Below are positions 11,699 through 38,713 of a DNA stretch of 64,000 nucleotides, piece after piece. The translations under genes and the position numbers were made by a program. The stretch is from Methanobacteriota archaeon (GTDB lineage: Archaea > Thermoplasmatota > Thermoplasmata > SG8-5 > DAIRED01). Within the stretch, counting starts at the first letter, position 1, and the number at the start of each line of letters is the position of its first letter. The DNA is taken from contig JAZDNO010000002.1 in the NCBI GenBank assembly GCA_043799545.1, positions 42,269 through 106,268 of the forward strand, read 5' to 3'. The notes under the pieces were generated by a model. It was not told the DNA's origin. It saw only the letters and a list, made by a program, of their open reading frames with translations, and searched no databases.

Positions 11699-11714
11699 TT
11701 ACTCAGTGTAGCCA

Positions 11715-13987: not shown

Positions 13988-14119
13988 ATACAAACACCAT
14001 AGACAACCATCGCCAGCCCAGGCTACGCCGTTGGGCAGCTAAATGGTTTATATGGAAAGGTCTGCTCGACCATAGCAATCAGTTTAAACGCAGGCCATTT
14101 CTTCAAAATGGCATACACA

Positions 14120-14340
14120 ATCAGACTTGAATCAAGTCCGATTGACAGCTTAACTAGATAACCGTCAGCACTTGACGGCTCGCCGGGCTGCGCCTCGGCT
14201 CGCCTCGAGATTAGAGGCGTTCCCGGCCTTTCGGCACAGTTTGGGGGCTTGCTGAGCAGCCCCACAAATCTTGGGCGCTACGCCCCCAACGCCCTACACC
14301 TATGGTGATGGGCTAAGGCCACCTTCCAGGTGGCTCAAAG
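14120..14340. other. Cluster of inverted repeats, candidate replication origin
   Basis: GACTTGA-A-TCAAGTC (14124-14138), CCGTCA/TGACGG (14162-14178), CGCCTC/GAGGCG (14201-14219), GGGCG/CGCCC and GCCACCT-TCC-AGGTGGC, in a non-coding region right after the Rep-like gene. Confidence 0.45.
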
Positions 14341-15270: not shown

Positions 15271-15564
15271 ATGAGTCCTCCCGTCTGGTTCAAGACACTC
15301 GACCACCTGGCAAGTGTGCCTGGGAATGGGTACACGGACTTGACCGCTCCGAGAGGATGTAACCAGGACGGCATCGCTGCGGCCCTGGGGATAACCAGGG
15401 CGCACGTTGCACTGAATCTGAAGAACCTTGTCAATCGCGAGCTCGTGATGGTGCGTTTGCTACATGTTCCCGGTAAAAACCGGAAGGTCAGGACGTACCA
15501 GCTAACGTTTTACGGTTACAAATTCCTCCACGAGCTTCACACCAGGCGTGGTCAGGAGGTGTGA
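15271..15564 (+). CDS. Winged helix-turn-helix protein
   Basis: NQDGIAAALGITRAHVALNLKNLVNRELV...RTYQLTFYG. Confidence 0.8.
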   Translation: MSPPVWFKTLDHLASVPGNGYTDLTAPRGCNQDGIAAALGITRAHVALNLKNLVNRELVMVRLLHVPGKNRKVRTYQLTFYGYKFLHELHTRRGQEV

Positions 15565-15567
15565 GCG

Positions 15568-15729
15568 ATGTGCCGGTACGATAGGGGCTTCAACAAGGGC
15601 TTCATGTGGGCGATGCGCCACAGCGCCGAGGAGGTCGGGAGGTACCTGGCCTCCCGGCGAGCGAGACCGAAAAGGTCGTACTGGAAGGGGTACATGGACG
15701 GGGTGAGAGCTACGGAGAGGGAGGGATGA
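15568..15729 (+). CDS. Small 53-aa protein, missed by the ORF track
   Basis: AGGAGGT upstream; MCRYDRGFNKGFMWAMRHSAEEVGRYLASRRARPKRSYWKGYMDGVRATEREG, with two Y-x2-G-[FY]-x2-G motifs. Confidence 0.55.
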   Translation: MCRYDRGFNKGFMWAMRHSAEEVGRYLASRRARPKRSYWKGYMDGVRATEREG

Positions 15730-16172
15730 GATAATGCTTCTGGCTTATCCGATTAAATTCTTGTCTGGTAGTATGACCATGATACTATTATGTATTGTGA
15801 TGATTATATGGGATATGATGATAATATGATGCGAAGGCAAGCTCTGTCAGAGTTACCAATCATAAATATTCGGTTTATAGGAGGGTATTATTAATGGAAA
15901 AATGGGAGTCAAAAAGAAAAATATTAATTTTTTATAGTTATTCCCATCTTGATAAATATGATGTTGGAAAATTAAAAAGTATACTTGAAATGCATGGATT
16001 TGCTGGGTTTTTAGCCCATGAAGATATTCAACCATCGAGAGTATGGGAACAAGAAATTTGTGAGGCTATTCAATATTCTGATATCTTCATACCCTTTCTC
16101 ACGAATAACTTTAAAACGTCCACATGGACTGATCAAGAATGTGGGATGGCCATGGCTCAAAATAAAAAGCTA

Positions 16173-16871
16173 ATGAGTGCTCCCAAGGCTAAAGCCTTGG
16201 GTATCCTCATCAGTTAGCTGGAGTAATCGTTCAGAGACCTTTGAGGAGTCATAATTTCAGGCATCATCTTACTGGGCCATGCCCTTGTCGGCGCATTGTC
16301 TGGGTGGTGCTTTTTCTGGGATGATTCGATGTAATGTTTGATGGTCTCCTCGTTCACTTCGCTGATTGGTCGAAAGAACTTGCCAGCGGACCATAGATGG
16401 CACCGGCTGTAGCCATCCAATTCGGGGAAGACAAGTCTCAACTCTCTGGAACTGCAGCCCTTCAGATATTGTATCACCTGGCTAATCGCCTGGGAAGGGC
16501 GGATATTCAAGAACAAGTGTACGTGGTCTTCCATTATTTCGTAAGCCTTGATTTCAAATCCGTGCCTCTCTGCAATCGCAAAGAATATAGCGGCCAATCG
16601 CCCTTTAATGTCTGCTCGGGCAAACATCTTAGAACGTTTGTAGGGCACAAGCACCACATGGTACTGGCAACATCCATAGGCATGGCTGAATGATCTGGCG
16701 GGATCCATTTGTGTCATACTCCTGGCGGTTCCAAGGCGCGCCGCGAAGCGGCGCGCGCCGTCAAAACGCCAGTATCGCGTGTATGGCTAAAAAGATGCCC
16801 CGGGTTAGCCGGTGCTTGCTCGCCCTACATCCCCAACCTAAAGGTTGCGGTATTAGGGCTAGGTCAGCCTA
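16173..16871 (-). mobile_element. IS200-type element (IS200/IS605 family, tnpA only, ~699 bp)
   Basis: Right-end hairpin CCCAAGGC-TAAA-GCCTTGGG near 16182-16201; left-end hairpin GCCCTA..CAACC-TTTA-GGTTG..TAGGGC. On the minus strand the target TTAT precedes the left end and the right end finishes in TCAT. No TSD and no tnpB. The exact junction is ambiguous by a few nt. Confidence 0.85.
16214..16717 (-). CDS. tnpA: Y1 HUH transposase (IS200 TnpA)
   Basis: YHVVLVPYKR, EDHVHLFL (HUH), YLKGCSSR, LWSAGKF and IKHYIESSQ (catalytic Tyr). Confidence 0.95.
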   Translation of the reverse strand: MTQMDPARSFSHAYGCCQYHVVLVPYKRSKMFARADIKGRLAAIFFAIAERHGFEIKAYEIMEDHVHLFLNIRPSQAISQVIQYLKGCSSRELRLVFPELDGYSRCHLWSAGKFFRPISEVNEETIKHYIESSQKKHHPDNAPTRAWPSKMMPEIMTPQRSLNDYSS

Positions 16872-17459
16872 ATAATGCCACTGGAAGTAGATATATTACC
16901 ATATGGATTTTTAAATAAGTATCAAAGCTTTAGATACAATCGTCATTCACCTGAAGTAATGGCTGCTAAAATAATTAAAATCATTATGGGTTCAAATATA
17001 AAAGGTATAAAGAGCAATATGATTAACATGTTCTCGGAAAGTCCCTCATTTGATAAAGCAAAATGTAGGGCTAAAATGCTTAAAAAATTTAATAATTTTA
17101 CCCGAGACGAAATTAATTATATCATTGAAAGTAGCATTAAAAATGACCAAATATATAATTCATTTGGTGCGAGGGATGTATTACTTGAATTTTTAAAGAC
17201 ATACGAAGGCCAAATCGTAGAAAAAAATATTGATAAACTAAAGGATATTTTTTCAAAAAATCCTATAAGTGGTTAGTAATTTGTAATCACCGTATGCCAC
17301 TCTGCCATTCCCTTCTGAAGCAATTTCCTTCGTGCGCTCCGCTGTTTGTATTCAATCGGTTCTGAAAGCCGGAGTTAGGTTATTAATAGGCGAATACCCA
17401 TCATTGGACCGTGAGCGCGAATAGGAACCGTCACTTGGGGGCGAACGGAGGGCGCGAGT

Positions 17460-17834
17460 ATGCCATTATTGTTAGCTAGCCATCGAATGCGAACACTTCT
17501 TGAGAACTTATCTGATTCATTACTTTCTAAATGTCCAAGTATAGAATGGAACGACTCTGATCAATGGAGAACTTTTAAAACAAAACAAAATGGATTAGTT
17601 TTTGTTCGTATCAGACCATACAAAGATTCAATTGCCATTTTTCCACATTTACCACTATCATATATGGAACAGATCGAATCTTTTAAGGTGTTTCCGGTGT
17701 CTGGCAAAAAATGGGAGAAGAAAAGACCATTTCGTTTTAATATCGTAAAACAGGAACAGATTCAGGAAACGATTCACATTTTAATGGATGCTAATTACTA
17801 TACAATCAATGGAACGTTAGAGCACCCACCATGA
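17460..17834 (+). CDS. Hypothetical protein, DUF5655/YdhG-like fold
   Basis: 124 aa; FVRIRPYKDSIAIF...FRFNIVKQEQIQETIHIL pattern. Confidence 0.5.
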   Translation: MPLLLASHRMRTLLENLSDSLLSKCPSIEWNDSDQWRTFKTKQNGLVFVRIRPYKDSIAIFPHLPLSYMEQIESFKVFPVSGKKWEKKRPFRFNIVKQEQIQETIHILMDANYYTINGTLEHPP

Positions 17835-17934
17835 GCCCCCTCCCCCGTGCATGCCATAGAACGACGAAAGGGGGCGTTGATGATGGTATGTTTAAGTCCG
17901 CCGAGGAGGATAGCGGATGCGGAGGCGACAAGTC

Positions 17935-18054
17935 ATGCAATACTCGGGGTTGGACGTGCACAAGGAGTTTTGCCATGGGACAGTGCTGACGGTTCTGTTG
18001 CGTTGTAGAGTTATAGCAACCGCCAAGGATGGACTGTTGCATCGCAGTTGCTGA
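17935..18054 (+). pseudogene. 5' fragment of an IS110-family recombinase
   Basis: GGAGG RBS then MQYSGLDVHKEFCHGTVL, the Y-x-G-L-D-V-H-K N-terminus of IS110 DEDD recombinases. Similarity is lost after about 19 codons and the frame stops at codon 40. Confidence 0.7.
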
Positions 18055-18088
18055 CGGATTGCTTCTCCTCACCTGGCCAAGTATAATC

Positions 18089-18361
18089 CTATTTCTCCAA
18101 CTCTTCGTCCACTTTGCTCAGAAGGGTTGCCACGCGCTTGCCTTTGTCGGTCAGGGAGATTAGCCGCCTCCCGCCGAACTTGTCCTCGGTTTTCTCGACA
18201 ATCAGACCGTCGGCCCTCAGCTCGCCCAGCCTTGAGCTTATCGTGCTGATGCTGCCGCCCGTGGCTTCGGCTAGCTTGGAGAACGGGATGGCCTTTCCCT
18301 CTTGGTGAATGGCGATGAGTACGTCCATCGATTTGCTACGTTCCAAATTTCTGAGACTCAT
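18089..18361 (-). CDS. Winged-HTH (MarR/HxlR-like) regulator
   Basis: MDVLIAI...FSKLAEATGGSISTISSRLGELRADGLI...RRLISLTDKGKRVA. Confidence 0.88.
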   Translation of the reverse strand: MSLRNLERSKSMDVLIAIHQEGKAIPFSKLAEATGGSISTISSRLGELRADGLIVEKTEDKFGGRRLISLTDKGKRVATLLSKVDEELEK

Positions 18362-18474
18362 AGAACGGGTATCGACGGGGGCGCAAATATTCCTTGTTTT
18401 TACTATTATAGGAAATTAATATATCATTCTTCTGCCATAACCCTACTTATTGCAGAAACAAGTAGGTGGTCGGA

Positions 18475-18612
18475 ATGGCTGACGAAATGGACGAGATTAT
18501 CGAGATGGTGGCCCGGTGGGTGAGGCCTAACGTTGACATGGCAGAGCTGAAGGCATCCCCGTTCTACGGCTCGGTCAAGAATAAGGTCGAGGAACTGATA
18601 GGCAGGGAGTAA
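18475..18612 (+). CDS. Small 45-aa helical protein, missed by the ORF track
   Basis: AGGTGG RBS; MADEMDEIIEMVARWVRPNVDMAELKASPFYGSVKNKVEELIGRE; divergent from the wHTH gene. Confidence 0.55.
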   Translation: MADEMDEIIEMVARWVRPNVDMAELKASPFYGSVKNKVEELIGRE

Positions 18613-18807
18613 TCTCTGTGCGGTCACGTGGTGGCATCTTTTTATCTATCCTAGTTGTGCTAGAATTCGTTATCAAGTATCAGACTGTGCTCTCCTCGTC
18701 GGTCAACTGCCCTCCTTTTGCTTCCGTTCACAAATCAGTTTACAAAACAGATTATATACACCCTATCCTATCTCATCATCGCAATACGCTAGGAGAGAGG
18801 GGTCGCG

Positions 18808-21800
18808 ATGAGAACATTTACCAAGGCGCTGGCGACGGTGTGTGTAGGCGTAATGTGCTTGACCGCACTCCAGAACGTTTCTGCCGGAGCTTATGACGAG
18901 GGGGAAGACATGGATATTTTCACGGATTCCCTTGGGAACAGGCATATGGTCTGGAGGGAATTAGTCAACGGGGTTTATCAGGTATTCTATAGCCTAGAGA
19001 TTGTCGATGATGAATACACGACAAACTATCAGTCTTATATGACACAGACCATTAACCAGAACTTAAATTTCGACGACGGGTACCTTACCATCCAGAATTG
19101 CCAAATTAATGGAAATTTAAAATTAACTCGCGCACAGGTCTCAATCATCAATTGTACGATAAATGGAAATGTTAAAATCGATATGGGAACGATGATAATC
19201 CGTTCAACTTCGTTACATGGAAACCTGGATATTAAAAATGCGAATTTAGAATTACGGGTTAACGAAATCAATGGGAACGTTAAATCTCAGACAAATACGG
19301 ATTTGTTTTTCCAAACTGTTATCACAGGCAATGAGATTGATGGAAATCTAGATTTAAAGAGTGGTATCTGCTACGTGGTTGGTAACTCAGTAAATGGGAA
19401 TCTCGATATCAAGTCTCCGGCCACAATTCAGTCGGTGAGTGATAACGATGTGAATGGAATGATCAAATTAACAAGCGATACAAGTGGTTTTAATGGAATC
19501 CAGATAACCAATTTAACGACCAATGCAGCATATCCGCAATGTGCAATGGACCCAACAACTGGATTATTCTACATAATATGGGTCACGAATGAAGGTGGGT
19601 ACAGGGCATGGTATAGCGGTAGTGACGATGTGGTCGAATGGAGCCTTCCTTATGTTACCGACGTTGTTATCAATACGTGTGACAATCCGCAGATGGATTT
19701 TATAGCGTATGGTGGAACCCTGAGCATCTCATGGTTGCAGTATGGCAATGCTCAAATTGTTGCTGACTTGGACTTTGATATGATTCCAGACATTAGTGAC
19801 GTTAATCCATTAACATATGATTCTCAAATCGGTATTGGAACGTTTAGCCCGGATGTTATCATGGCGGATGGTACGATGGGAATCAGTGTCGCTATTGATT
19901 ACGCGACGAATTTGACTATCAAACCGACACTCGCCATAGCCTCGTGTCCGATTCTAAATGCTAATTATGGGCCTTATTTTAGCGTTACAATAGGGTCATC
20001 AGATAATTTCACCGCCATCATTAAAATGAAGTTTGACCCGAATGCACTCTCCACTGACACAATCAAATACCTGCGTATGTACTGGCTTAGGGACGATACG
20101 AATTGGAAAATATTAAAAAATGTTTCCGCTGGGGAGGATACAGGGGTTGATTTGGACAATGGATATGTTTGGGCAGTTACTGCTCATTTCAGTACATTCA
20201 CAACCGCGGATTCTTCAATGGTGGATTCTGATTCTGATGGACTTACCGATGCCCAGGAGATAAATGCTGATGGAAGCTTACCTATTGTTATCGATAAATT
20301 TTCAGACGATTCAGCGGAAAGAAGTTTGATATTCAGCGGTTCAGACAGCCAAACTGTATGGTTGAAAGTTCCTATTAGCCAGATTGACATACTTCGCGCA
20401 TCATCAACCCAGATGGATGTTACAAGTAAATTATTCCAAATGTCAGTTCAGCAGATGTTATACAATGATGATGCTGCAGTTTATCAGTTAAGTCCCCAGA
20501 TATATGAGGATAAGGTGATTTGGTGCGACAATCGATACGATACAGTTTCAGGAAAATGCGCAGTATTTTTGAAAACAATTGGAACACCTGATGAAATACA
20601 ATTATCTTCGATTAATGAAAATTCTGGAAACGCGAAAATATCGGGTAATTATGTAGTGTGGTCTACATATAGCTCAACAAGCAATAAGATTAGCGTTTAT
20701 AATATTGAACGGAATGAGATAATCCAAAGTTTTGGGGTAAGTGCCGGTGATTTGGATATTTATGGTGATATAATGGTGTGGAGCGAAATGAGCGTTTACG
20801 GACCAGACTATCTATATACCTACAAAATCAGCACACAAGAACTTCAACAAATTACTACAACGGATTGTGGAGCCACTCATATATATGGCGATTATATAGC
20901 ATATCATGATCATACGCAGGGTGGATTGTGGCTATATCAGCTATCGACTCAACAATATACGAGAATCACGACTGCGGGTGTGAATCCCTGGATGCTCGAT
21001 ATTGATGACCGATATGTTGCATATTTAGATATAACTTCAAATGATATATATGCCTATGTCCTAGCTACGGGTGATACGATTCGATTGACCAATACATTTT
21101 CGTATGAAAGCAATCCCTCAGTCGACGGTGGAATTGTTCTCTGGACTGATTATAGAAATGGCGATCCGGACATATATGGTTTTGACATTCTAAAAAATTT
21201 TGAGATTCCAATATGTGTTGCATCAGGTAATCAGGGAGCTGCATCAAAATATGGAGATAATATCGTATGGCAAGACCAGCGAAATAGTCCACTTCCAAGA
21301 ATATATAGGGGAACAATCGGAACTCCATCTATTTCTATTGCTATTGGAGATAGAAACTTAGATAATATTGTGATGGACGGGACGAATTCAGAGTTCCCAG
21401 ATTTTTCTGTGCCATTAAATTATTATCTTTCGACACATAGTGATAGTGATGATGGGGTATCAGACAACTTTATCTCCGTGCCGCTGGCATTCTCAACAAC
21501 AGCTGTGGGGGAATTGACATTTTCAAACCTGGAAATCAATATTTATCCTGCCCTTACAGATCCAGTGAATTGGGATACGGACGGCGAGGGTCTTTCCGAT
21601 GGTGATGAAGTATTGATGTATTTTACGGATCCATGCGACATTGATACAGACGACGATAAATTGTCTGACTATGATGAACTCATGGGAATCTATCATGGGT
21701 ATATCAGCGACCCAAATAATCCTGACACAGATGGGGATAAAATAAACGATGGTGTTGAGGTAAATGTTTTATCGACTCAAAATTCGGAAATTAATACATT

Positions 21801-24800
21801 TACTGATGGATTTTCTACAAAAGATATTATCTTCACAGAAGCTGGTAGCCAAACAATCTCATTTGAGATTCCAATCACTGCTGAAGCAATAGAGTATGCG
21901 CAGGCTTCATCAGTGCAATTTGCATGCCAGGAATACTTGGTGATTGACAAAACTAAATACCATCATAAACTCGCGATGAATGATAACACAATTGTTTGGG
22001 CAGATAAAGTCGATGGAAATTACGACATTAAATCATATAATTTTATCAATGATGTTAGTAACCAGATACCGACTCTATCGGGCGATCAGGTGGAACCTGC
22101 AATGTACAATAATATCGTTGTATGGACCGATTATAGAAATGATGCGGATGGTAAATACACCGGTACAGGAGATAATGGTGATATTTACCTGTACAATATC
22201 GCTACTGGGGTTGGAAAATACATTTCTTCTTCCACGCAAAATGATTTTGATCCGGCAATTTATGGAAATTACGTTGTGTGGGTAAGAGAGAACAACAATC
22301 AACACGATATAATATTGTATGATATAGAGAAGGGGTATGAAAATTCTGCGACTGGCGAAATCGCAACACTTGGTGGGATGCCATATAATCAATTCGAGCC
22401 TAGCATTTGGGGACAAAGGATTGTCTGGACAGACTCAAGAGATGGAAATTTAAACATCTATATGCATGACATCAGCACTGGAATAACAATTCCTGTTACA
22501 AACAATCAAGCGATTCAAGATTCACCTTGCATATATGAAGATGTTATTGTATGGCGAGACAATAGAAATTCAAATTGGGACATATATTCATGTACTGTGG
22601 GTACATCAGGAGAAAATAAATTATCGAAGATGTCAAGTAATGAGTTTTCTCCAATGGTCTGGCAGGCCGGAGTAGTGTGGACAAAGGCTAATGATGACCA
22701 TTTTGATGCCCAATGGTATAGCGATGGAGTAACGCTTACCACATTCCCGCATTCTACCTTAACCGACCAATTACTTTGCACGGCATGGGGACAAAATATT
22801 GCTTGGATTGATTCCTCAGGATCCGGGTCAAAAATAACTATTTATTCGGTTGGGGATGCCCCTCAGGCAACAATCACGAGCATAACGCCGGATCCTGCAT
22901 CGCCAGATACTTATACATTCCAAGGAATTGGGTCTGCCGCCGGGAGTGCTACGATAATGGATTACAGGTGGTACTCCGACCTTGACGGTCTGCTGAGTTC
23001 GGCAGATACCTTTACTACATCGAGTATGACGAAGGGAACACATGATATATCATTTACAGTTAGATCAAGCAACGGTTTGTGGGCTATTCCATTCCACTCA
23101 ACAATCGTGATAAATAATGATATTCCAATTGCATACATATCTTCGATATCCGCAAACGCAGTCATAAAAGGCCAATCCGTCACATTCTATGGATTGGGAA
23201 CGGATTCAGATGGCTCGATCGTAAAGTATCGTTGGGTATCCAGTCTGGATGGGGACATCGGTAGCCAAGCATCATTGGCAACAAATATGTTGTCCTCTGG
23301 TAACCATGAGATATTTTTCTCAGTCATGGATGATGCTGGTGAGTGGTCTACAGTTGTTTCATCCGGTCCAATAATAGTTTCGGAGAGTTCAGTCACGACG
23401 GGAAACATACCGACAGGGGGTGGCATGATATGGCAATCTACCTATCCAAGGTTGATCAGCATCCAAGTCACGGCTGGAGCCTCCTCAAACTTCGGAATAT
23501 CCGTTGATGGAAGAACCTCCAGAAATGTAAAGAACAGTGGGACGTATTCGTATGTTGGATATGCTACATCGATTTCTCTGAGTTCTTTTGATAGTGGCGA
23601 ATCCGGAACATATTCAGTGCTCCCTGGCATCCTCACATCTTATAGTGGTAATATAAAGAGCGAAGATGTCATATGGGAATCGGATGTATTACGTGAAGTA
23701 ACTGTCAAAGTTGTTTCAAATACAGGGGAATTCGAAATTAATGCGAATGGGAATTGGAGGTCACTAGCCAATTTGGGAACGTATTGGTACGTGGGTAGAA
23801 CCGGTTCCATCGGAATTGATTCTCCTGGGGGATCGTTTAGTGGAACATACCAAATAACACTGGGCATATTAAATGGCTATTCAGGATTATTCTACGATTC
23901 CGGTTCTACGGAGGTAGTCTGGGAATCAGATACGGCGAGGGATGCGACAGTGAGGGTAACATCAACGAGTGGAACATTCTCTGTGAATGCGAATGGGAAT
24001 GCGAGAACAATGGCATACCCGGGGACGTACTGGTATGTCGGGATTACGAGTTGCGTACAAATGACATACGTAGGTTCAGGAGACAGTGGGAATTACGAGA
24101 TAATATTAGGAGTGCCAGGCAGTGCGAGCAGTTACACTGGAACATTCGCGTATGCTGCATCGACCCAAGTTGTCTGGGAATCTGACACAGCGAGAGTAGC
24201 GACTGTAAAAGTTTCATCAACAAGTGGGTCATTTGCAGTAAACGCGAATGGCAATACGAGGTCGATAGCATCACCAGGTACATACTGGTATATTGGGAGT
24301 ACGAACTGTGTACAACTGTCATCGATGGATTCTGGGGATGGGGGAAATTACGTAATAACGTTGGGAGTAGTTGATACGCCATATGGTTATTCTGGCACTA
24401 TTTCCGATGCCGGCACCAGTGAAGTAGTCTGGGAATCCGATATCGACCGATTGATGACAGTGAAGGTGGTATCGACAGACCCAGACCTCGGAGATACCTT
24501 CTCTGTAAAAATCGACGGAGCTACACGAGCAACATTAGCCAAGCCTGGCACATATTGGTATGTTGGTAATATTCATCTTGTAGAGTTAAGTTTATTCGGT
24601 CCAGATGATGCAGGGATATACGAGATAAAAAACGGTATAGCTGAGAGTTACTCGGGGTCATTATTCCACGATGGCGTTAGCGGTGGGAGCGAGGTAATTT
24701 GGGAATCGGATACATCCATTCTCGGATGCCAGGTCGACATCGTGGCATCATCTGGATCTTTCACAGCGTCGGTTAATGGCGGTTCAACAGTAACAGTATC

Positions 24801-27800
24801 TGCAACAACTCCATTATCCTACACAGGAGCGTTGTATTCCATCGTCATTTCCAGCTTTTCAAGCTCTGATACTGGTTCCTATCAAATAACACGAACAAAT
24901 CAGGCTCCAGTAGCAGAAATAATTTCGATATCTCCAAACCCAGTTACAGCAGGATCAGCAATTACATTCGTCGGCTCTGGAACGGATTCTGATGGATTTA
25001 TCGATGGATATTCGTGGTCGATATGGGTTATCGGAGGGTGCGATCCCGCAGTATTCACTAATACTCAGACATTCTCATGGGTTACGACTATTGTTGGTAC
25101 ACATACCGTATATTTTTCTGTGTGTGATGATGATGGCGTCTGGGCATCATCTGATATCGCAACGATAACTGTAACCGCGGCCTCTTCGATCATCTCAATA
25201 CCAGCCCCAATGATTTATGAGGATAAACTACCCTCATCGAATTATAACTGTGGCAATTCAATAAATGACCCAACTCTCCTTACAACCGTACCATCTGAAT
25301 TGCCTATTGCATCCATCGATTCGATTGGACCATCTCCATCGAGATACAACGAACTTGTTACAATGAGAGGGCATGGAACGGGAGCCAATGGTCGGACAAT
25401 CAAAGCATTTAGCTGGAGGTCCGGTGCAACAGCATTGGGTACATCTGCCACGACATCAACGCAATCATTGAGTGCTGGTATCCACATCATCTATTTCAAG
25501 GTCCAAGACAGCTCTGGTCTATGGTCTGAAGAAGTTGGGAGTGTTCTAGTCGTGAAAAGTAATATTCCGCCAATGGCTTTGATTTCGGCACCAATGGATA
25601 GCGCGGTGTTCGTATTTGGCGAGGACATCGTGTTCAATGCAGGGACAAGCTCAGACTCCAACAACGACAGGTTGACGTTCAACTGGGACTTCGGTGATGG
25701 AGCTACAAGTACTAATGTGGTATCTCATCATGCCTACATTATAGCTGATAATAATCAAAACCAGGAAACTACGTATACAATCCGATTGACAGTCAATGAT
25801 GGAATACTCGTGTCCGAGACTTCGATTCATATCCATGTACGGTCGAATATTATGCCGACAATAAGTTACACTCCAAATATTCGGACTACCTTAAATTATG
25901 AATACAAATCGACTCTAGCATCTCCTACCATATCCGTAGAGGTGGCGAATGATGATTGGACCAATCAAAATTTCCGATTGACGACAGAAACTATTTCGTT
26001 AACAAAAGGCATCAACAATTATCTAACATTATTCCATCAAGCGAATGTTGCAGGTACTGCGACTATAGTGTTAAAAATTTCGTCCACCTCTGCAGGACTA
26101 ATACGCGTTTCCAGTCTCTTCGTTCAAGTTTCAATCCTCGTGCTCGATTCTTCTTTCCCAGATACCGACCTTGACAACCTTGATGACGGAATCGAAGTAT
26201 ATGTGCACGGAACAAATCCATGTGTGCAGGATACGGATGGCGACACTTTGTCCGATTACTACGAGATAATGGGCACCCCGACCAGACCAGAGTTTCGTTC
26301 TGACCCGCTCTTATGGGACACAGATAACGATGGCTTAAACGATTATGAAGAATATTCTTATATCGGGTTAAATCCGCAGAACCGTGACACTGACGGAGAC
26401 TACCTATTTGATGGTGATGAATTATATCCATCGTTATACCATAAAGATTGGTTGTACACACCGTATTCGTCAAATCCCTTGAATCCGCATTCTGACAATG
26501 ATGGGTTGAATGACCATGCCGAAGCCATATTCTTGTGCAACCCAAAAGCCGTAGATACCGACCGTGATTACCTTTGGGATGGTGATGAAATCGATCCAAT
26601 TAATTTCCATAAAGACTACTACGAGACCGCTTTCTCATCTAGTCCAACGGTAATGGATTCAGACGCAGATGGGCTGACTGACTATGAGGAAGCCAGATAC
26701 CAATCGAATCCGATGACGAGTAATTCTGATGAGGATGGAATAAGCGACCCAGACGAGTTAACATATTTGTTGAATACTCCAAGATACCACTCATCGGGTG
26801 AAGGAACAATCATATATGGTGAGCAAACGTACAATTTTATCGTAGAAATGCCTCCAATTTATGGAACAGTACAAATGGTATATCTTTATCTAAGAATAAT
26901 GTACCCATATCTGGGATGGCAATTTACCCTAAGTTATTCAAGCCAGGGAGTCACAATCAACCAATTTGAAATAGAATATTCAACTGAGCAATACCTTGTG
27001 GGGGCACACGATCCAGACTGGTACCACCCATTGACACTTACCAAGGGAAGCGTCTGGACTTTGTCCGTTTATAGTCCCGAACCGTATGTTCTCGATATTC
27101 TACAGGAATTTTCATTGTTATTCTATAAATCTCCCTCGCCAACGCTCACGGACAGTGACGGGGACGGATGGAACGACAGCCTCGAAATCGGACAGGGCAC
27201 GGACCCTACATACTGGAACGATATTTCTGTAGGACTTGACACAGACGGTGACGGGTTGAGCAACAGCGTAGAAGACGCAGACGGAGACGGGGCGATAGAC
27301 GGCGATACAAACAACAATGGCATTATTGATTATGGCGAGATTTGGCATGAAACAAACCCGAACAATCCTGATTCAGACGGGGACGGCCTGTGGGATGGGG
27401 ATGAAATCGACCCGATAACAATCCATAAAGATGCGTATGAAACAAAATTCCCATCAGACCCAAAGCTGAAAAACTCGGATTCTGATACCTTGGATGATAG
27501 GCAGGAGGCTATATACCAGTCCAATCCGAAATTGAAGCACTCAGACAACGACGGGCTGGATGACGCACAAGAGATAGCATTTGGGTGCAGTCCGACAAAC
27601 CCAGACAGCGATGTTATCAACGGCATGATGGTCGGCGACGGCCTATACGATGGTTGGGTCGATACTAACGGTGATGGAGTATACAACGCGGGAGAGCCCA
27701 AGGGCGAACTCGGCGATCCTGACCTGGGATATGCTGGGGGGCTCGGGACGGACCCGCACGACCCCGACATGGACAACGACGGGCTTCGAGACGGCTGGGA

Positions 27801-29583
27801 GGATACCAACGGTGATGGTTGGTACCAACCGGGTGAGACCTGGGGCGAAATTGGAAACAGTCTCCAGGGGCTAGGGGGATATGGCACGTCCCCAACAGAT
27901 GAGGACTCCGATAACGATGGAATCAATGACGGACCGGAATCGATATACTGGCTGACGCAAACGGGAACGCGTGCGGTAGACTCTATTGGGACTCTACTGA
28001 ACAACCCGAATTCTGATGGTGACGGATGGACAGACGGCGAGGAAATTAATACCTATTTCACGAACCCAGGGCTGACTTCCACAGACTCGGACGGAGTTCC
28101 AGACGACTGTGACATTGACCCTCTCGTAAATACACAAGTTACATTGAAGATAACAGAGATAGAAGCAAAGGATGATGTGGATCCAAATAATGATCCTGCA
28201 GACTTTTTTATAAGATGTAATATCAACGGTGTTCTATTTGGGCGTAATCCAACTATTAATGACGATACACCATCGAATTACCTAGTCAATAAAAATGGTA
28301 TCGGAACGTGGGATCAGGACAATCACAAAACACCAGATGAGATTGAGAACCAATTACAATTCACCGTGGATGTTTCGGATGACAAGACACAATATAATAG
28401 TAGGATGGAAATCGAAATTGCAATCTCCCTTTTCGATGATGACTATGGGCGCAGTCCGCCTGATGATGACCTATGTGATATAACTCGATTCCCGATTTCG
28501 AATACTGCTTATATATTCTATAGTTTAAAATTCGCTCAATGGTCTGGTGAGGATGCGATATATTTCGATCCTTTATCAGATCCTAGTAACACCCCAGGTG
28601 ATCCACCAACGGGGGGTATTTATGATGACCGATTCGAATATAATTACGGCAATTATGGGCGTAGCTATGGGATGATATCTGGTGAAGAGGATGGTATTAG
28701 AGGGGATGAGAATGATTGCATAGTATGGTTTGATATTACACAAAGTGATTTTGATAACGATGGGTGGACGTATTGGGAAGAGATGGATTATTTTGGCACG
28801 AATCCAAAAATCACTAATCAAAAATATGCTATTGTTGTTGGATGCTCTAATTATGATGATGAACCAATATATACAAATGATCTACGATGTGGCGATAATG
28901 ATGGAAAGGTCGTGTACGATTGGTTATTGGCTGCAGGCTGGTCCCGAGATAATGTATATTTCTATGTCAACTCTAACTTAGAGGATGGAGATCCAGGAGC
29001 ATCTGAATTAAGAGAATATGATGTCGATGGTGAGCCAACGACAGCGAACGTTGATAATGCATTTAGTATTATTGACGGTTGTGTTACTGAAAATGATATT
29101 ATCTTTTTCTACTATTCTGGACACGGTGAAGCAGGGACCTCATCTTTATGGTTTGTTGGTGAGGATAAATACAGTCCTATAAGTTTATTAAATAAATTCT
29201 CATATTTACATGCAATGCATAAAATACTTATTCTAGATTCTTGCTTTGCTGGTGGTTTCGTTGATGAGATTAATAAAGTAATATCTGGAAATGCGTATGT
29301 AGATACGATTGTAATAGCTTCATCAACTAGCGCCGAAACAAGTGGTTATTTGCCCCCTCGCTTTGGAATCGGTGACATTGAGTTAGTAACCAATAGTTAT
29401 ACAACCCTTGACATCACAAATTATATTCTTCAGAGACCATCCGAGCCCATTACACACCCCAGAAGTCTCCAAGATGTCATCGATTTCCTCCCCGAACGAC
29501 CAACTCAGCATCCACAAAGTGCTGACCGCGGAGGTATTGCACAGGATATCTATTATCTCGATGTAGGGTGGTGTAACATATGA
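18808..29583 (+). CDS. Giant secreted multidomain protein (3591 aa) with C-terminal caspase-like (clan CD, C14-like) protease domain
   Basis: Signal peptide; GN[LV]xI beta-helix; two beta-propeller repeat blocks (IVWxDxR..GxxDIY); PKD domains; six ~80-aa repeats; many DxDxDGLxDxxE Ca-binding repeats; C-terminal KYAIVVG..YYSGHG..ILDSCFAGGF. No C-terminal TM. Confidence 0.9.
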   Translation: MRTFTKALATVCVGVMCLTALQNVSAGAYDEGEDMDIFTDSLGNRHMVWRELVNGVYQVFYSLEIVDDEYTTNYQSYMTQTINQNLNFDDGYLTIQNCQINGNLKLTRAQVSIINCTINGNVKIDMGTMIIRSTSLHGNLDIKNANLELRVNEINGNVKSQTNTDLFFQTVITGNEIDGNLDLKSGICYVVGNSVNGNLDIKSPATIQSVSDNDVNGMIKLTSDTSGFNGIQITNLTTNAAYPQCAMDPTTGLFYIIWVTNEGGYRAWYSGSDDVVEWSLPYVTDVVINTCDNPQMDFIAYGGTLSISWLQYGNAQIVADLDFDMIPDISDVNPLTYDSQIGIGTFSPDVIMADGTMGISVAIDYATNLTIKPTLAIASCPILNANYGPYFSVTIGSSDNFTAIIKMKFDPNALSTDTIKYLRMYWLRDDTNWKILKNVSAGEDTGVDLDNGYVWAVTAHFSTFTTADSSMVDSDSDGLTDAQEINADGSLPIVIDKFSDDSAERSLIFSGSDSQTVWLKVPISQIDILRASSTQMDVTSKLFQMSVQQMLYNDDAAVYQLSPQIYEDKVIWCDNRYDTVSGKCAVFLKTIGTPDEIQLSSINENSGNAKISGNYVVWSTYSSTSNKISVYNIERNEIIQSFGVSAGDLDIYGDIMVWSEMSVYGPDYLYTYKISTQELQQITTTDCGATHIYGDYIAYHDHTQGGLWLYQLSTQQYTRITTAGVNPWMLDIDDRYVAYLDITSNDIYAYVLATGDTIRLTNTFSYESNPSVDGGIVLWTDYRNGDPDIYGFDILKNFEIPICVASGNQGAASKYGDNIVWQDQRNSPLPRIYRGTIGTPSISIAIGDRNLDNIVMDGTNSEFPDFSVPLNYYLSTHSDSDDGVSDNFISVPLAFSTTAVGELTFSNLEINIYPALTDPVNWDTDGEGLSDGDEVLMYFTDPCDIDTDDDKLSDYDELMGIYHGYISDPNNPDTDGDKINDGVEVNVLSTQNSEINTFTDGFSTKDIIFTEAGSQTISFEIPITAEAIEYAQASSVQFACQEYLVIDKTKYHHKLAMNDNTIVWADKVDGNYDIKSYNFINDVSNQIPTLSGDQVEPAMYNNIVVWTDYRNDADGKYTGTGDNGDIYLYNIATGVGKYISSSTQNDFDPAIYGNYVVWVRENNNQHDIILYDIEKGYENSATGEIATLGGMPYNQFEPSIWGQRIVWTDSRDGNLNIYMHDISTGITIPVTNNQAIQDSPCIYEDVIVWRDNRNSNWDIYSCTVGTSGENKLSKMSSNEFSPMVWQAGVVWTKANDDHFDAQWYSDGVTLTTFPHSTLTDQLLCTAWGQNIAWIDSSGSGSKITIYSVGDAPQATITSITPDPASPDTYTFQGIGSAAGSATIMDYRWYSDLDGLLSSADTFTTSSMTKGTHDISFTVRSSNGLWAIPFHSTIVINNDIPIAYISSISANAVIKGQSVTFYGLGTDSDGSIVKYRWVSSLDGDIGSQASLATNMLSSGNHEIFFSVMDDAGEWSTVVSSGPIIVSESSVTTGNIPTGGGMIWQSTYPRLISIQVTAGASSNFGISVDGRTSRNVKNSGTYSYVGYATSISLSSFDSGESGTYSVLPGILTSYSGNIKSEDVIWESDVLREVTVKVVSNTGEFEINANGNWRSLANLGTYWYVGRTGSIGIDSPGGSFSGTYQITLGILNGYSGLFYDSGSTEVVWESDTARDATVRVTSTSGTFSVNANGNARTMAYPGTYWYVGITSCVQMTYVGSGDSGNYEIILGVPGSASSYTGTFAYAASTQVVWESDTARVATVKVSSTSGSFAVNANGNTRSIASPGTYWYIGSTNCVQLSSMDSGDGGNYVITLGVVDTPYGYSGTISDAGTSEVVWESDIDRLMTVKVVSTDPDLGDTFSVKIDGATRATLAKPGTYWYVGNIHLVELSLFGPDDAGIYEIKNGIAESYSGSLFHDGVSGGSEVIWESDTSILGCQVDIVASSGSFTASVNGGSTVTVSATTPLSYTGALYSIVISSFSSSDTGSYQITRTNQAPVAEIISISPNPVTAGSAITFVGSGTDSDGFIDGYSWSIWVIGGCDPAVFTNTQTFSWVTTIVGTHTVYFSVCDDDGVWASSDIATITVTAASSIISIPAPMIYEDKLPSSNYNCGNSINDPTLLTTVPSELPIASIDSIGPSPSRYNELVTMRGHGTGANGRTIKAFSWRSGATALGTSATTSTQSLSAGIHIIYFKVQDSSGLWSEEVGSVLVVKSNIPPMALISAPMDSAVFVFGEDIVFNAGTSSDSNNDRLTFNWDFGDGATSTNVVSHHAYIIADNNQNQETTYTIRLTVNDGILVSETSIHIHVRSNIMPTISYTPNIRTTLNYEYKSTLASPTISVEVANDDWTNQNFRLTTETISLTKGINNYLTLFHQANVAGTATIVLKISSTSAGLIRVSSLFVQVSILVLDSSFPDTDLDNLDDGIEVYVHGTNPCVQDTDGDTLSDYYEIMGTPTRPEFRSDPLLWDTDNDGLNDYEEYSYIGLNPQNRDTDGDYLFDGDELYPSLYHKDWLYTPYSSNPLNPHSDNDGLNDHAEAIFLCNPKAVDTDRDYLWDGDEIDPINFHKDYYETAFSSSPTVMDSDADGLTDYEEARYQSNPMTSNSDEDGISDPDELTYLLNTPRYHSSGEGTIIYGEQTYNFIVEMPPIYGTVQMVYLYLRIMYPYLGWQFTLSYSSQGVTINQFEIEYSTEQYLVGAHDPDWYHPLTLTKGSVWTLSVYSPEPYVLDILQEFSLLFYKSPSPTLTDSDGDGWNDSLEIGQGTDPTYWNDISVGLDTDGDGLSNSVEDADGDGAIDGDTNNNGIIDYGEIWHETNPNNPDSDGDGLWDGDEIDPITIHKDAYETKFPSDPKLKNSDSDTLDDRQEAIYQSNPKLKHSDNDGLDDAQEIAFGCSPTNPDSDVINGMMVGDGLYDGWVDTNGDGVYNAGEPKGELGDPDLGYAGGLGTDPHDPDMDNDGLRDGWEDTNGDGWYQPGETWGEIGNSLQGLGGYGTSPTDEDSDNDGINDGPESIYWLTQTGTRAVDSIGTLLNNPNSDGDGWTDGEEINTYFTNPGLTSTDSDGVPDDCDIDPLVNTQVTLKITEIEAKDDVDPNNDPADFFIRCNINGVLFGRNPTINDDTPSNYLVNKNGIGTWDQDNHKTPDEIENQLQFTVDVSDDKTQYNSRMEIEIAISLFDDDYGRSPPDDDLCDITRFPISNTAYIFYSLKFAQWSGEDAIYFDPLSDPSNTPGDPPTGGIYDDRFEYNYGNYGRSYGMISGEEDGIRGDENDCIVWFDITQSDFDNDGWTYWEEMDYFGTNPKITNQKYAIVVGCSNYDDEPIYTNDLRCGDNDGKVVYDWLLAAGWSRDNVYFYVNSNLEDGDPGASELREYDVDGEPTTANVDNAFSIIDGCVTENDIIFFYYSGHGEAGTSSLWFVGEDKYSPISLLNKFSYLHAMHKILILDSCFAGGFVDEINKVISGNAYVDTIVIASSTSAETSGYLPPRFGIGDIELVTNSYTTLDITNYILQRPSEPITHPRSLQDVIDFLPERPTQHPQSADRGGIAQDIYYLDVGWCNI

Positions 29584-30317
29584 AAAAGAACATCAAAGGA
29601 GTCGGAGCCATAATATCGATTGTAGTTATTCTCTCTGTAATATCGGTTTATCTTTATATACCAAGTGATTACAAACCAAAATATACCTTGTACACGGCAC
29701 CTAGACAAATTCAATCTAGATTCATATCATCATCTCCAACTATCGACGGGAAACTGGGACAGAATGAATGGGATTATGATGAACTCAGCCAGATCATTTT
29801 ATCATCAAATTTCACTGAAGATTCTCTCACTTGCCAATATATTATTCAAAATATAAATTCAACGTTGTTCCTTTTATTTCGAATAAGCGATGATACTTAT
29901 GGCCCTTTAGACATTTATATAGATAATCGAAATGATAACCTCCTAGACTATACACAAGAACCAATGGAACACCGTCTTCATTTTTACAAAGATAATTTAC
30001 AATGGTGTATATTTTCAAGGGATATTGATGGAAATTTCACTTGGAATGCTGGAGAAAAACGACCAATGCCAAAGATAGTTCAAAGCTTTGGATCGAGCCA
30101 ATCGGAGGATTGGATCGTTTATGAGATAGCCCTCTCCATGACCGAGGAAAACGAGATAATCCTGGGATTAAATAATTCGATTGGAATGGATTTTGCATAT
30201 TGGGACTACGATGTTGGTCAATATTATTTTACTGACCCATATGGTAATCCTGCAGGTGATGCCTCGAATTATACGGACATTTACCTAGCTAATGCTCCAC
30301 AGGATCTACGGGAGTGA
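29580..30317 (+). CDS. N-terminally anchored exported protein with a CBM9/DOMON-like domain
   Basis: ATGA overlap with the giant gene; hydrophobic N-terminal helix; SPTIDGKLGQNEWD...LFLLFRISDD...WIVYEIAL pattern. Confidence 0.7.
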   Translation: MKKNIKGVGAIISIVVILSVISVYLYIPSDYKPKYTLYTAPRQIQSRFISSSPTIDGKLGQNEWDYDELSQIILSSNFTEDSLTCQYIIQNINSTLFLLFRISDDTYGPLDIYIDNRNDNLLDYTQEPMEHRLHFYKDNLQWCIFSRDIDGNFTWNAGEKRPMPKIVQSFGSSQSEDWIVYEIALSMTEENEIILGLNNSIGMDFAYWDYDVGQYYFTDPYGNPAGDASNYTDIYLANAPQDLRE

Positions 30318-30798
30318 AAAATGACCTTCCGTAACCCCCGAACCTGCCGGAGAAAACGCCAGAAGGCGTTGTGTGGCAGCGTGAGCCTTCCCGACAAACC
30401 GTCGTCTGGGATGCCGCCGCTGATCCTCCCGGTGCTTCTCATAGATGAAAAGACCCTTTGCTATCCACCATCCATCGACGGAACAGCGCATTTACTCCGC
30501 AATCCGGCGCTGTATTGCACAGCAAAATATGGGCGGGAAATTCGTAAATCCTTTCGCCAAACACCCCCGTACCGTACGCTTATAGAAACGTTTAGTCCGT
30601 AGAGGATACACGACCGATTCGCAACAAAGCTCAGACCCTTCGCCGTGAATATTATCCCATTGGCGGGAGGCAGCGAAGATGCCTCGATGGAGCATCCCCG
30701 TCCAAGATTTGATGGTAAGATATCGAATGATGGATTGCGACAATTTATAGTTATGGGATGAAGGAAGAAAAGGATGACAGAAAGGTTTGTATTAATAC

Positions 30799-31164
30799 TC
30801 ATCTCACTTTTTTATAGAACTTCGGGGGATCATATATAAAACCACTATACCCAGAGATCTCACCATCACGAAAATCAAGGTCATGAGCGACACGAATCCC
30901 TCTGGGTGTCAAGTAAATCATTCTTTTCCTGTGTCCCTCAGTTGAATAGTCATCCTTTATCAAACCAGCGTTTATTAAATCTTTAAGACGGAGGTTGATT
31001 GTGGAGTTACTACAATCTATAACTTCAGACAGCTCGGATAAAGACATCGTAATTGGTAATGACTTTTCTAATGGATCTTCCTGGTATAACGCAAGCAAGA
31101 TTTTTATAGCTCCAGGAGCTTCAAGTATGTAGATTGGTCTTTTTGGTACATCATTTTTTTTCAT
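30799..31164 (-). CDS. Winged-HTH regulator, divergent from the integrase
   Basis: AIKILLALY..SLSELSEVIDCSNSTINLRLKDLINAGLI..RMIYLTPRGIRVA. Confidence 0.88.
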   Translation of the reverse strand: MKKNDVPKRPIYILEAPGAIKILLALYQEDPLEKSLPITMSLSELSEVIDCSNSTINLRLKDLINAGLIKDDYSTEGHRKRMIYLTPRGIRVAHDLDFRDGEISGYSGFIYDPPKFYKKVR

Positions 31165-31306
31165 CGCGAAACATTATATCAGGGCTCATATTTATAATTA
31201 CCGAATTTGACATTGGGTAAAATTAATATACCCGACAATGCATACCCATTTTCAATATGAGTAATTACCCGAAAAAGAAACAGGAATCGAACAAGAGGAT
31301 GATATA

Positions 31307-32227
31307 ATGCGTAATCCAGCATATCTCATCAGAGCTAACGAGTGGCTCGATGGCCTCAGGAAGAAGAACTATAGTGAGATGACAACGCGCAAGGCTTATC
31401 GTTGGCCGCTAATGGCCGCGTACAGGGCTCTAAAGAGCAAAGGATATCCTACACAGATTAGATCTATCGGTTCAGAAGCCGCATTATTCGTTATTCAGGA
31501 TGTTTTCCATGGACGCGCTAAAGACATCGCAGCATGGAACCGGTTCTTGCTAGCCAACAAGAATCCGGTCATCGAGATGCTGGAGTACCACGTCAATCCA
31601 AGCACGAGAAGCACCGTGGATTGGCTGAACCTAGAGAAAGGCGAGGACTTCGCCGTTTGGGAAGCCGCGCGAGAAATCAGGGAAAAAGCCCTGATTCACT
31701 CGGAACTTTACCTTGGCATGCGCAGGATATCCGTCCAGCGGTTCCAGCTTTCATGGTTCAATGGACAGAGCATAAACATCCATGGCAAAGGGCGGGGAGG
31801 CGGCAAATGGCGTACGATAGCGCCGCACAAAGATACTGCCGAGTTGTTCGCAACCGTAAAAGAGCATAATTCCCAGCTTGCCAAGAAAGCCGGTTCAGAC
31901 TCATATCCCGACAATATGATGTTGTGCGTGAAAGGTACGAACCTCAGGAAATACGGGTTCACTTCGTTGGACAACATCGTCAAGCGGGTTTCCGTCAGGT
32001 CCGGGATAGAATTCAGCCACCACACGTTGAGGAGAACCGCAGGCCGTAGGATGTGGAAGGCAGGAATCGCCATCGAGAGCATCGCGAGGTTCCTCGGGCA
32101 CTCCGACATTAGGATGACCATGTTATATATCGGCGCTAACTACGACGATACCGAGGCGGCGATGCGAGCCGCCGAGAAATGGGACGAAGAACGTAAACGG
32201 TCCGCGAACGGTACAGGGGGTCCATGA
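31307..32227 (+). CDS. Tyrosine recombinase/integrase
   Basis: YLGMRRIS (R), GKGRGGGKWR (K), HHTLRRT (HxxR) and LGHSDIRMTMLY (H, catalytic Y); ends 24 bp from the tRNA-Trp 3' end. Confidence 0.95.
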   Translation: MRNPAYLIRANEWLDGLRKKNYSEMTTRKAYRWPLMAAYRALKSKGYPTQIRSIGSEAALFVIQDVFHGRAKDIAAWNRFLLANKNPVIEMLEYHVNPSTRSTVDWLNLEKGEDFAVWEAAREIREKALIHSELYLGMRRISVQRFQLSWFNGQSINIHGKGRGGGKWRTIAPHKDTAELFATVKEHNSQLAKKAGSDSYPDNMMLCVKGTNLRKYGFTSLDNIVKRVSVRSGIEFSHHTLRRTAGRRMWKAGIAIESIARFLGHSDIRMTMLYIGANYDDTEAAMRAAEKWDEERKRSANGTGGP

Positions 32228-32251
32228 GCCAGCAAATCCAAAAAATAGAAG

Positions 32252-32427
32252 TGGGGGCGCTGGGATTTGAACCCAGATCAGCGGGTTTCTTCCACGCCGG
32301 GAGCTACCCGGCGCGTTTTCTGAACTACGGGTCAGCGCTCCAGTCATACATCACTTCTTCAGCAAACCCGTTGGCAATCATGCCCGTAACTGGAGCCCGC
32401 GAGGATACCGTGTTACCCCACACCCCC
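32252..32427 (-). tRNA. tRNA-Trp(CCA) with a 103-nt intron at 37/38
   Basis: Acceptor GGGGGTG/CGCCCCC-A; anticodon arm GCGGG-CT-CCA-G[intron 32287-32389]A-CCCGC; T-arm CTGGG-TTCAAAT-CCCAG. Confidence 0.95.
32287..32389 (-). ncRNA. Intron-encoded box C/D guide RNA of tRNA-Trp
   Basis: Stem TACGGG/CCCGTA enclosing C (ATGATTG), D' (CTGA), C' (GTGATGT) and D (CTGA) boxes. Guides ACTGGAGC and CGGGTTT are complementary to positions including C34 and C39 (D+5 rule). Confidence 0.88.
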
Positions 32428-38613: not shown

Positions 38614-38713
38614 AGTTTAACCGCACGAGCTATTTATATTCTGCCACAATCTGGTTTGTTTCGAGCAAAATTTATTATATGACACAGGATTGTTATCTGA
38701 CGAGGTCCGACGA

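Follow-up and report, generated by a model that had tools for sequence, protein, structure and literature searches.

The 64,000-nucleotide window analysed here (positions 42,269 to 106,268 of contig JAZDNO010000002.1, GenBank assembly GCA_043799545.1) comes from a Methanobacteriota archaeon that GTDB places in the Thermoplasmatota (Thermoplasmata; SG8-5; DAIRED01), with a genome of 2.06 Mb in 31 contigs that is 94% complete. The window contains a giant gene, P0001 (18808-29583, + strand, open throughout), that encodes 3,591 amino acids (aa) ending in a caspase-type peptidase domain, and a partner gene, P0002 (29580..30317, + strand, 245 aa), that overlaps the giant gene by ATGA. We read the locus as a new archaeal version of the Sec-type polymorphic effector/partner systems, here the cargo of an integrase-bearing island. 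By analogy with Sec-type polymorphic toxin systems, P0001 and P0002 may function as an archaeal effector and its partner, an interpretation for and against which the evidence is about evenly balanced. The family to which the locus belongs fits the logic of such systems in its conserved junction, varied tips, joint replacement of tip and partner, and rare, island-borne tips other than zincins. A first-pass annotation had recognised, from the letters alone, a giant open reading frame (ORF) with a signal peptide, propellers, PKD domains and calcium-binding repeats, a terminal domain with an intact His-Cys dyad, and an overlapping next gene with an anchored extracellular product; each of these features was found again, the scaffold modules by Pfam and NCBIfam, and the anchor of P0002 as an N-terminal hydrophobic helix.

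The caspase-type tip of P0001

The tip of P0001 (aa 3339-3591; 28822..29580, +) was assigned to Peptidase_C14 by profile, alignment and AlphaFold2 (AF2) model. Profile PF00656 matches aa 3339-3511 with a score of 32.8 bits, above its threshold of 21.4, and with 38.1 bits in a search of the whole genome. The catalytic dyad consists of His3439 in the motif YYSGHG (codon 29122-29124, +) and Cys3479 in the motif LDSCFAGG (codon 29242-29244, +), which occupy two near-invariant columns in an alignment of 23 sequences from archaeal relatives; a phmmer search of the PDB pairs YYSGHG with SGHG in metacaspase 9 of Arabidopsis (AtMC9), and DSC with the catalytic Cys147 of that enzyme, a residue replaced in the crystallised protein. 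The AF2 model built on the 23-sequence alignment has a predicted local distance difference test score (pLDDT) of 85-94 in its core, and each dyad residue directly follows one of two neighbouring beta-strands (112-118 and 152-158); the dyad is correctly placed in this model, and the structural misplacement that the first-pass annotation had named as fatal to its reading was not seen. Foldseek matches the model with a probability of 1.00 to AtMC9, Yca1, legumain, GPI8 and MALT1, with metacaspases ranking first. Identity to solved structures is just 16-22%, and about 110 residues past Cys3479 are modelled at a pLDDT below 60. Judged by its dyad and modelled fold, the tip is a divergent, catalytically complete C14 peptidase of the caspase/metacaspase fold. 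Homologue searches with the tip returned no giant relative and one weak match of 313 aa only.

Gingipains, clostripain and legumains are exported clan CD enzymes, so the earlier statement that proteases of this clan are mostly intracellular was too strong. For sediment Thermoplasmatota, signal peptides are reported as predicted on C11, C13 and C25 peptidases, and the peptidases found expressed include C14B and C25 (PMC6461988). An exported C14 enzyme is nothing unusual for the phylum, because in several relatives in the 23-sequence alignment the caspase domain directly follows a signal-peptide-like N-terminus. P0001 does not have the features of a gingipain, its tip being C14 rather than C25 and the domain scan having found no Por_Secre_tail. 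The genome encodes a second Peptidase_C14 domain (contig C6, 43389-43790, 57 bits) in an open frame of 797 aa without a match to the junction described below.

A conserved junction ahead of diverse tips

A search of relatives with the stretch that precedes the caspase domain uncovered a family defined by a junction of about 77 aa with the consensus G.W.GDD..GD.NGYGH.SG.EDG......DDCE[LV]WFDI.Q.D.D.DG.T.W.E...YGT.P. In P0001 the junction occupies aa 3266-3342 (28603..28833, +) and reads ..YG..SGEEDG..DC.VWFDITQ.D.D.DG.T.WEE..GTNP. The alignment of the family (A2) has 13 invariant columns, a Cys among them. The junction hidden Markov model (HMM) has matches in 21 of the 401 class genomes, spread over 13 of 105 genera, and a search across 185,579 species confirmed at least 100 loci, the best 80 of which are all from Thermoplasmata or Thermoplasmatota-type metagenome-assembled genomes (MAGs). 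The junction-bearing relatives are uncultured MAGs, mostly from hydrothermal and marine-sediment sites by their isolate names. By sequence, the junction appears to be a new module restricted to Thermoplasmata, unless it is mentioned in the 2019 mBio survey of archaeal polymorphic toxins.

Among 106 distinct ORFs of the family, the distance from junction to stop codon is 180 to 641 aa (median 275) irrespective of total length, which ranges from 234 to 3,596 aa, and short members have their own signal peptide immediately ahead of the junction. At least ten types of tail follow the junction. They include Peptidase_C14 (P0001), a second caspase-like domain, Peptidase_C25 (in relatives only), Peptidase_C13 (in a 3,132-aa paralogue on contig C31 of the same genome), Metallophos, PAD_porph, two groups of HExxH zincins, and at least five types without an assigned family. 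Thus, a variable C-terminal domain sits behind a conserved junction on an exported scaffold, as in polymorphic toxins. The commonest context of the junction is a Thermoplasmata protein of about 460 aa in which it is joined to an HExxH zincin (L126-L131, L137, L154 and about 60 more loci); this family has sub-threshold matches only to Reprolysin_3/Metallopep in Pfam, and a sequence search of the PDB with one metalloprotease relative found nothing significant.

Tips and partners exchanged as cassettes

The gene downstream of each tip was scored as a partner if it encoded an N-terminal transmembrane segment and started between 100 nucleotides before and 150 nucleotides after the stop codon of the tip, which is true of 16-18% of genes genome-wide. 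Such a partner follows 16 of the 19 tips that are not metalloproteases. In the first 31 complete loci, which were inspected individually, 24 tips are followed by an ORF with a hydrophobic N-terminus, mostly of 137-413 aa, and the two ORFs usually overlap or lie no more than about 20 nucleotides apart. The partners contain LTD, Fn3, PKD, Ig/CARDB, beta-helix, PepSY, DUF6438 and CBM9-like domains, and taken together have twice the expected number of N-x-S/T glycosylation sequons (216 versus 109). Detectably related partners were found in 21 pairs of loci, all of which have related tips, and in no pair with unrelated tips.

Direct evidence of exchange comes from three loci (L005, L065 and L070) of one related MAG (G006), the DNA of which is 82-92% identical up to the middle of the junction and, in L065 and L070, shared again past the partner gene. 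Between these common flanks lie different cassettes, namely a caspase with an Fn3 partner, a PAD domain with a beta-helix partner, and a C25 peptidase with a 189-aa partner. The three loci sit on short contigs, and the alternative cassettes suggest polymorphism at the level of strains that also broke the assembly. Spare cassettes are present in relatives and on contig C31, some as ORFs that begin within the junction (from HMM positions 33-37 onward) and others as ORFs behind a shared leader, all without a signal peptide, in the manner of the orphan cassettes of polymorphic toxins. At the level of the family, tip and downstream gene appear to vary together while blocks of the scaffold are shared, as the first-pass annotation had predicted; the invariant C-terminus without a conserved partner that would have spoken against it is not what the ten or more tail types and the 16 of 19 partnered tips show. 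The scaffold is not constant: blocks of scaffold and junction are shared between proteins with different C-terminal enzymes, within scaffolds that are mosaics. As for the pair that it had proposed, either toxin and immunity protein or protease and tether or inhibitor, the joint exchange of tip and partner agrees with a pair, in which the partner may be an immunity protein, an inhibitor or a tether.

The end of the window cassette is marked by an element of about 120 nucleotides (30311..30436, +) that begins six bases ahead of the stop codon of P0002 and comprises a ribosome-binding site, an ATG (30321) and a conserved basic leader, which here opens only a 93-aa stub (30321-30602). Copies 80-90% identical to it follow four other partner genes, two on contig C31 (34475-34564 and 32432-32532) and two on contig C6 of a genome of the same genus, G001 (L062, 7895-8020 and 5208-5321). 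In these copies the basic leader (MTFRNPRTCRRKRQK...) opens the next junction-and-tip ORF; the leader peptide, MTFRNPRTCRRKRQKALCGSVSLP.KPWSGMPP, thus heads a tip ORF that has no Sec signal. Conserved sequence thus delimits the window cassette at either end, the junction ahead of it and the 120-nucleotide element behind. The element was found only in two families of the order and matches no Rfam family. A role as a hairpin was considered and rejected, as the most divergent copy preserves the peptide and not the stem. A scan for promoters and terminators with a bacterial model, which is not informative for an archaeon, did no better than on shuffled sequence.

The partner gene P0002

P0002 encodes a single N-terminal hydrophobic helix (aa 3-30) followed by an all-beta remainder, with 5 sequons against 2.2 expected. 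It has no homologue among 5.8 billion clustered sequences or, by phmmer, among 1.84 billion representatives, and one marginal match among 60 relatives. It has no match in Pfam, PF06452 included, even at an E value of 5, and no significant match in the PDB. ESM Atlas features give a score of 0.91 for a CBM9_1-like domain, and the Atlas model, with a predicted template modelling (TM) score of 0.72, matches CBM9_1 clusters with TM scores of 0.60-0.67; an AF2 model made without an alignment has a pLDDT of 42 and is unusable. The ectodomain is probably a beta-sandwich of the CBM9 (CBM9/DOMON-like) type, an assignment from modelling that is treated as a lead only. A co-fold of the caspase domain with the P0002 ectodomain, run without controls, scored 0.00 and counts neither for nor against binding.

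Scaffold of the giant protein

All scaffold features of P0001 are on the + strand. The protein begins with a Sec-type signal peptide (aa 1-26; 18808 to 18885) that has the n/h/c layout MRTFTK, ALATVCVGVMCLTAL and QNVSA ahead of G; this leader was identified by reading the sequence, and its ending QNV[SF]A is conserved in the paralogues on contig C31 and on contig C109 of G006. A lipobox was considered and rejected, as the signal peptide has no [GAS]-Cys. No membrane anchor was found beyond the signal peptide, neither a C-terminal anchor nor PGF-CTERM; the sole 19-residue window above the hydrophobicity threshold begins at aa 2428, within a domain at aa 2345-2480. The composition is acidic (14% D+E, 4.5% K+R).

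The N-terminal module (aa 27-560; 18886..20487) consists of NGN-type beta-helix-like repeats, has a weak Bactofilin-like match and is common to other giants; a very large ORF on contig C22 of the same genome (93777-100667), which has no junction, is 52% identical over aa 25-332. Two beta-propellers follow (aa ~545-905, 20440..21522, and aa ~1005-1350, 21820..22857), with seven stretches of TIGR04275 beta_prop_Msarc repeats (E 4e-66) in the Pfam and NCBIfam scan; the borders of the first were set by reading and self-matches, and the second includes the best TIGR04275 stretch (1192-1224) and a TolB-like match (1153-1286) and falls in a block (aa 866-2134) that is 42% identical to the same-genus giant G001:C14. 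Two PKD-like domains (aa 1350-1555; 22855..23472; PKD_4, E 1.5e-6) are succeeded by six repeats of about 85 aa with the motif VVWESD..GTYWY (23470..25062), delimited by direct repeats D2, D4 and D6 and by motif positions. Among 22 genomes of the order, this repeat is found elsewhere only in a giant of the same genus (G001:C14), at 54-62% identity. Further PKD domains (aa 2085-2345; 25060..25842) match PKD_4 at aa 2271-2333 (E 9.7e-16). Calcium-binding repeats of the TSP3 type make up two regions (aa 2480-2700 and 2776-3085; 26245..28062), which were identified by TSP3_bac and a CglD-like match, contain within their stretch 8 of the 10 DxDxDG motifs of the whole protein and flank a domain of about 135 aa (aa 2700-2835). 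The pre-tip domain (aa 3085-3265; 28060..28602) is 42-45% identical to its positional counterparts in the C31 giant and G001:C6, and has no significant match in a sequence search of the PDB. Pfam has no family for the pre-tip domain, the 135-aa domain or the 85-aa repeats, and the P-domain-like and C2-like segments of the first-pass annotation found no family match.

P0001 is a mosaic. It is 43% identical over aa 6-988 to a giant of another family with a zincin end (G006:C109), 42% identical over aa 866-2597 to the same-genus giant G001:C14, which has no junction match and an end without an assigned family, and 34% identical over aa 2855-3326 to the C31 giant, which ends in C13. It has been purged of N-x-S/T sequons, with 7 present against 43.8 expected, a single one of them within the final 3,150 residues, as have several related giants (L061, which is G001:C14, and L108, L143 and L186). 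Large exported proteins encoded elsewhere in this genome show the opposite, a 1.2- to 2.75-fold enrichment of sequons.

The integrated element and its surroundings

P0001 accounts for 10.8 kb of a low-GC integrated element of 20.5 kb (11668..32267) that was delimited by GC content, direct repeats and a tyrosine recombinase gene. The GC content is 0.36-0.48 in the element, compared with 0.57-0.60 in the flanks and 0.58 in the genome. Direct repeats of 26 nucleotides (family D7) lie at 11668-11693 and 32242-32267, with another copy at 11562-11587, and the tyrosine recombinase gene (31307-32227; Phage_integrase match) is at the right end. The element also holds small winged helix-turn-helix genes and a Rep-like gene. 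Both giants of the genome are in low-GC islands, as the C31 paralogue likewise lies in a low-GC stretch.

Elsewhere in the element, an IS200-type transposase gene (16214-16717, - strand) lies inside a TIR gene (stretch 15894-17276), next to a short TIR-domain ORF (15894-16217). Just outside the island are tRNA-Arg(TCT) (32737-32812) and MtrA-like and MtrH-like genes (32833-35383), with no other mtr genes nearby; the genome also has a gene for an archaeal CCA-adding enzyme. Other very large ORFs of the window are at 38690-43228, 43359-49583 and 52122-55754 (1,210-2,297 aa, a range that includes the ORF on C22).

Proposed function and alternative explanations

The P0001 family consists of Sec-exported, anchorless, calcium-binding modular proteins particular to Thermoplasmata, with an enzyme tip, the last 180-640 residues, set apart by the junction. 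In some of its members the tip and the next gene make up a cassette, which appears to be swapped by recombination between junction and conserved downstream flank. We infer the target and direction of action, as well as binding and protection, as follows. The 3,300-residue stalk would keep the protease at a distance from the producer, the protease would cut surface proteins of neighbouring cells, and the cognate partner, small, outward-facing, membrane-anchored and sequon-rich, would bind and neutralise the tip on the membrane of the producer. A membrane-anchored, outward-facing partner is the expected form of an immunity protein because the enzyme would act at the surface. Somewhat short of an even chance, in our estimate, is the broader proposition that Thermoplasmata practise contact-dependent competition or kin discrimination by means of sequon-purged, calcium-stiffened stalks bearing exchangeable surface-attacking enzymes, with glycosylated immunity partners, cassettes and integrative spread. 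If so, clan CD proteases, zincins, a deiminase and a phosphoesterase would each be neutralised by a cognate anchored partner, the cassettes would be shuffled between a protein-coding junction and a 3' element, and the loci would be spread by integrative elements.

Several observations weigh against an effector/partner function. No delivery or retention mechanism is evident. HExxH metalloproteases make up 76 of the 95 complete junction tails (80%), and many members of the main zincin group (n=69) are 80-96% identical between MAGs; an N-terminal transmembrane protein is encoded downstream in only 16 of these 69 loci, which is about the baseline. As most junction genes are therefore zincins without an enriched partner, the junction alone is no marker of a conflict system. 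No nuclease, deaminase or pore-former was seen among the tips, each identified tip being a hydrolase of extracellular type, and the partner domains are ordinary surface domains and belong to no known immunity families. Only 21 of 502 pairs of loci with related tails share related partners, the remaining 481 having unrelated or different neighbours. The junction of P0001 itself does not have the near-invariant His (SYGM where the family has GYGH), and its tip and P0002 are both without close homologues, the pairing of these two being predicted from the family. The C11, C13 and C25 peptidases of sediment Thermoplasmatota have been interpreted as digestive (PMC6461988).

These points bear on a less probable alternative, in which P0001 is a nutrient-scavenging or adhesive exoenzyme, the stalk binding particles or detritus and the C14 tip digesting external protein, as the C25, C13, metalloprotease, phosphoesterase and deiminase tips of relatives would do with their substrates, and the partner is a tip-specific tether, maturation factor or latency inhibitor by which the enzyme stays at the surface of the producer. 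It is consistent with the conserved secreted metalloproteases that dominate the junction family, with the short forms in which the junction immediately follows a signal peptide, with named tips that are all hydrolases suited to uptake of protein, phosphate or arginine, and with the numerous further exported peptidases, and a peptide-binding SBP_bac_5 protein, encoded in the window and genome. Extracellular clan CD peptidases are, moreover, reported and expressed in sediment Thermoplasmatota (PMC6461988). The tips other than metalloproteases are, however, rare, patchy, without close homologues and located in low-GC islands, and they are replaced as cassettes jointly with a fast-evolving partner, a turnover that one would rarely see in digestive enzymes with a housekeeping role; for a tether, the constant junction would offer a binding site, and a change of tip would not call for a change of tether. 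The P0001 gene also takes up half the length of a mobile element.

Metacaspases are calcium-activated and self-processing, and the stalk of P0001 is rich in calcium-binding repeats; the caspase domain might, then, be a self-processing peptidase of a giant adhesin, cutting in cis after export and exposure to calcium (compare the cysteine protease domain, CPD, of MARTX toxins), with P0002 unrelated and merely co-transcribed. The invariant Asp-Cys in the junction agrees with this, as does the mostly releasing role of caspase-like peptidase domains in polymorphic toxins of bacteria and in their large surface proteins (PMC3482391). We regard it as improbable, because the caspase domain is the C-terminal-most domain with nothing past it to release, relatives hold non-proteolytic enzymes (Metallophos, PAD) in the same position, and the partner class is strongly enriched behind such tips. 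Least probable of all is a surface protein that serves the element by promoting cell-cell contact for its transfer or by altering the host surface to exclude rival elements or viruses, which would suit the 10.8 kb that P0001 takes up in an island of 20.5 kb equipped with att-like repeats and with integrase and Rep-like genes, and its lack of a host-type density of glycosylation sequons, but which leaves the enzymatic tip and paired partner unexplained and is at odds with the homologous giants and cassettes in many genomes that lack a visible element context.

Archaeal polymorphic toxin systems have been predicted but, by the account of PMC8416519, had not been experimentally characterised; their usual toxins are nucleases. 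The locus and its relatives constitute a defined, testable archaeal system, in which membrane-anchored candidate immunity proteins, cassette borders and a mobile carrier are all visible and the junction motif finds further members; tips acting at the cell surface would suit cells bounded by a surface layer. Should the scavenging explanation be the right one, the family would show how uncultured sediment archaea diversify long-reach exoenzymes, which is relevant to the turnover of organic matter. Whichever explanation holds, the junction HMM and the pairs of tip and partner provide usable material.

Comparison with known systems

The gingipains (C25) and PPAD of Porphyromonas gingivalis are extracellular and surface-displayed, with clan CD proteases that share a polypeptide with adhesin or Ig-like domains, and the archaeal repertoire of tips likewise includes Peptidase_C25 and PAD_porph; in gingipains, however, the protease is N-terminal, a C-terminal sorting domain directs type IX secretion, and neither a paired partner gene nor exchange of cassettes is known. 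The CPD (C80) of MARTX and large clostridial toxins is also a clan CD domain inside a giant secreted repeat protein, on which it acts, but it is internal, belongs to another family and has inositol hexakisphosphate of the eukaryotic cell as its activator, whereas the domain of P0001 is terminal and of the C14 type. The best sequence and fold matches of the tip are metacaspases and orthocaspases (MEROPS C14B; AtMC9, 8a53/9n3d; Yca1, 4f6p), which share the SGHG and D-x-C-x-[SA]-GG motifs and whose calcium dependence would suit a calcium-rich stalk; the P0001 domain differs in being exported on a 3,300-aa carrier and in its poorly modelled region after the Cys. The metacaspase type also combines a p20/p10 organisation with self-processing and a specificity for basic P1 residues. 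The clan CD peptidases of sediment Thermoplasmatota (Thermoprofundales/MBG-D) come from the same phylum and type of habitat, but junctions, giant stalks, paired membrane partners and cassette exchange are not described for them (PMC6461988).

The VARTIG module of Thermococcales (PMC8416519) is closer in organisation, being part of a large exported multi-domain archaeal protein of which the C-terminal part is hypervariable by recombination and is followed by small, mostly membrane proteins that track the subfamily; its authors liken it to polymorphic toxin systems. The tips of VARTIG are Ig domains without a recognisable enzyme, whereas those described here are hydrolases behind a different junction motif, in Thermoplasmata. 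Bacterial Sec-exported, propeller-bearing polymorphic toxins with caspase-like C-terminal toxin domains have also been described, and comparison with these Tox-Caspase proteins of the Sec/type II secretion class (Zhang et al. 2012, PMC3482391) sets the present system apart by its archaeal host, its Thermoplasmata-restricted junction, identified tips that are all extracellular-type hydrolases, and membrane-anchored extracellular beta-sandwich or beta-helix partners that match no known Imm family. The likenesses are a signal peptide, a long repeat scaffold with beta-propellers, a last domain of the caspase fold, a small gene directly downstream, C-terminal cassettes exchanged behind a conserved junction, and spare cassettes in relatives.

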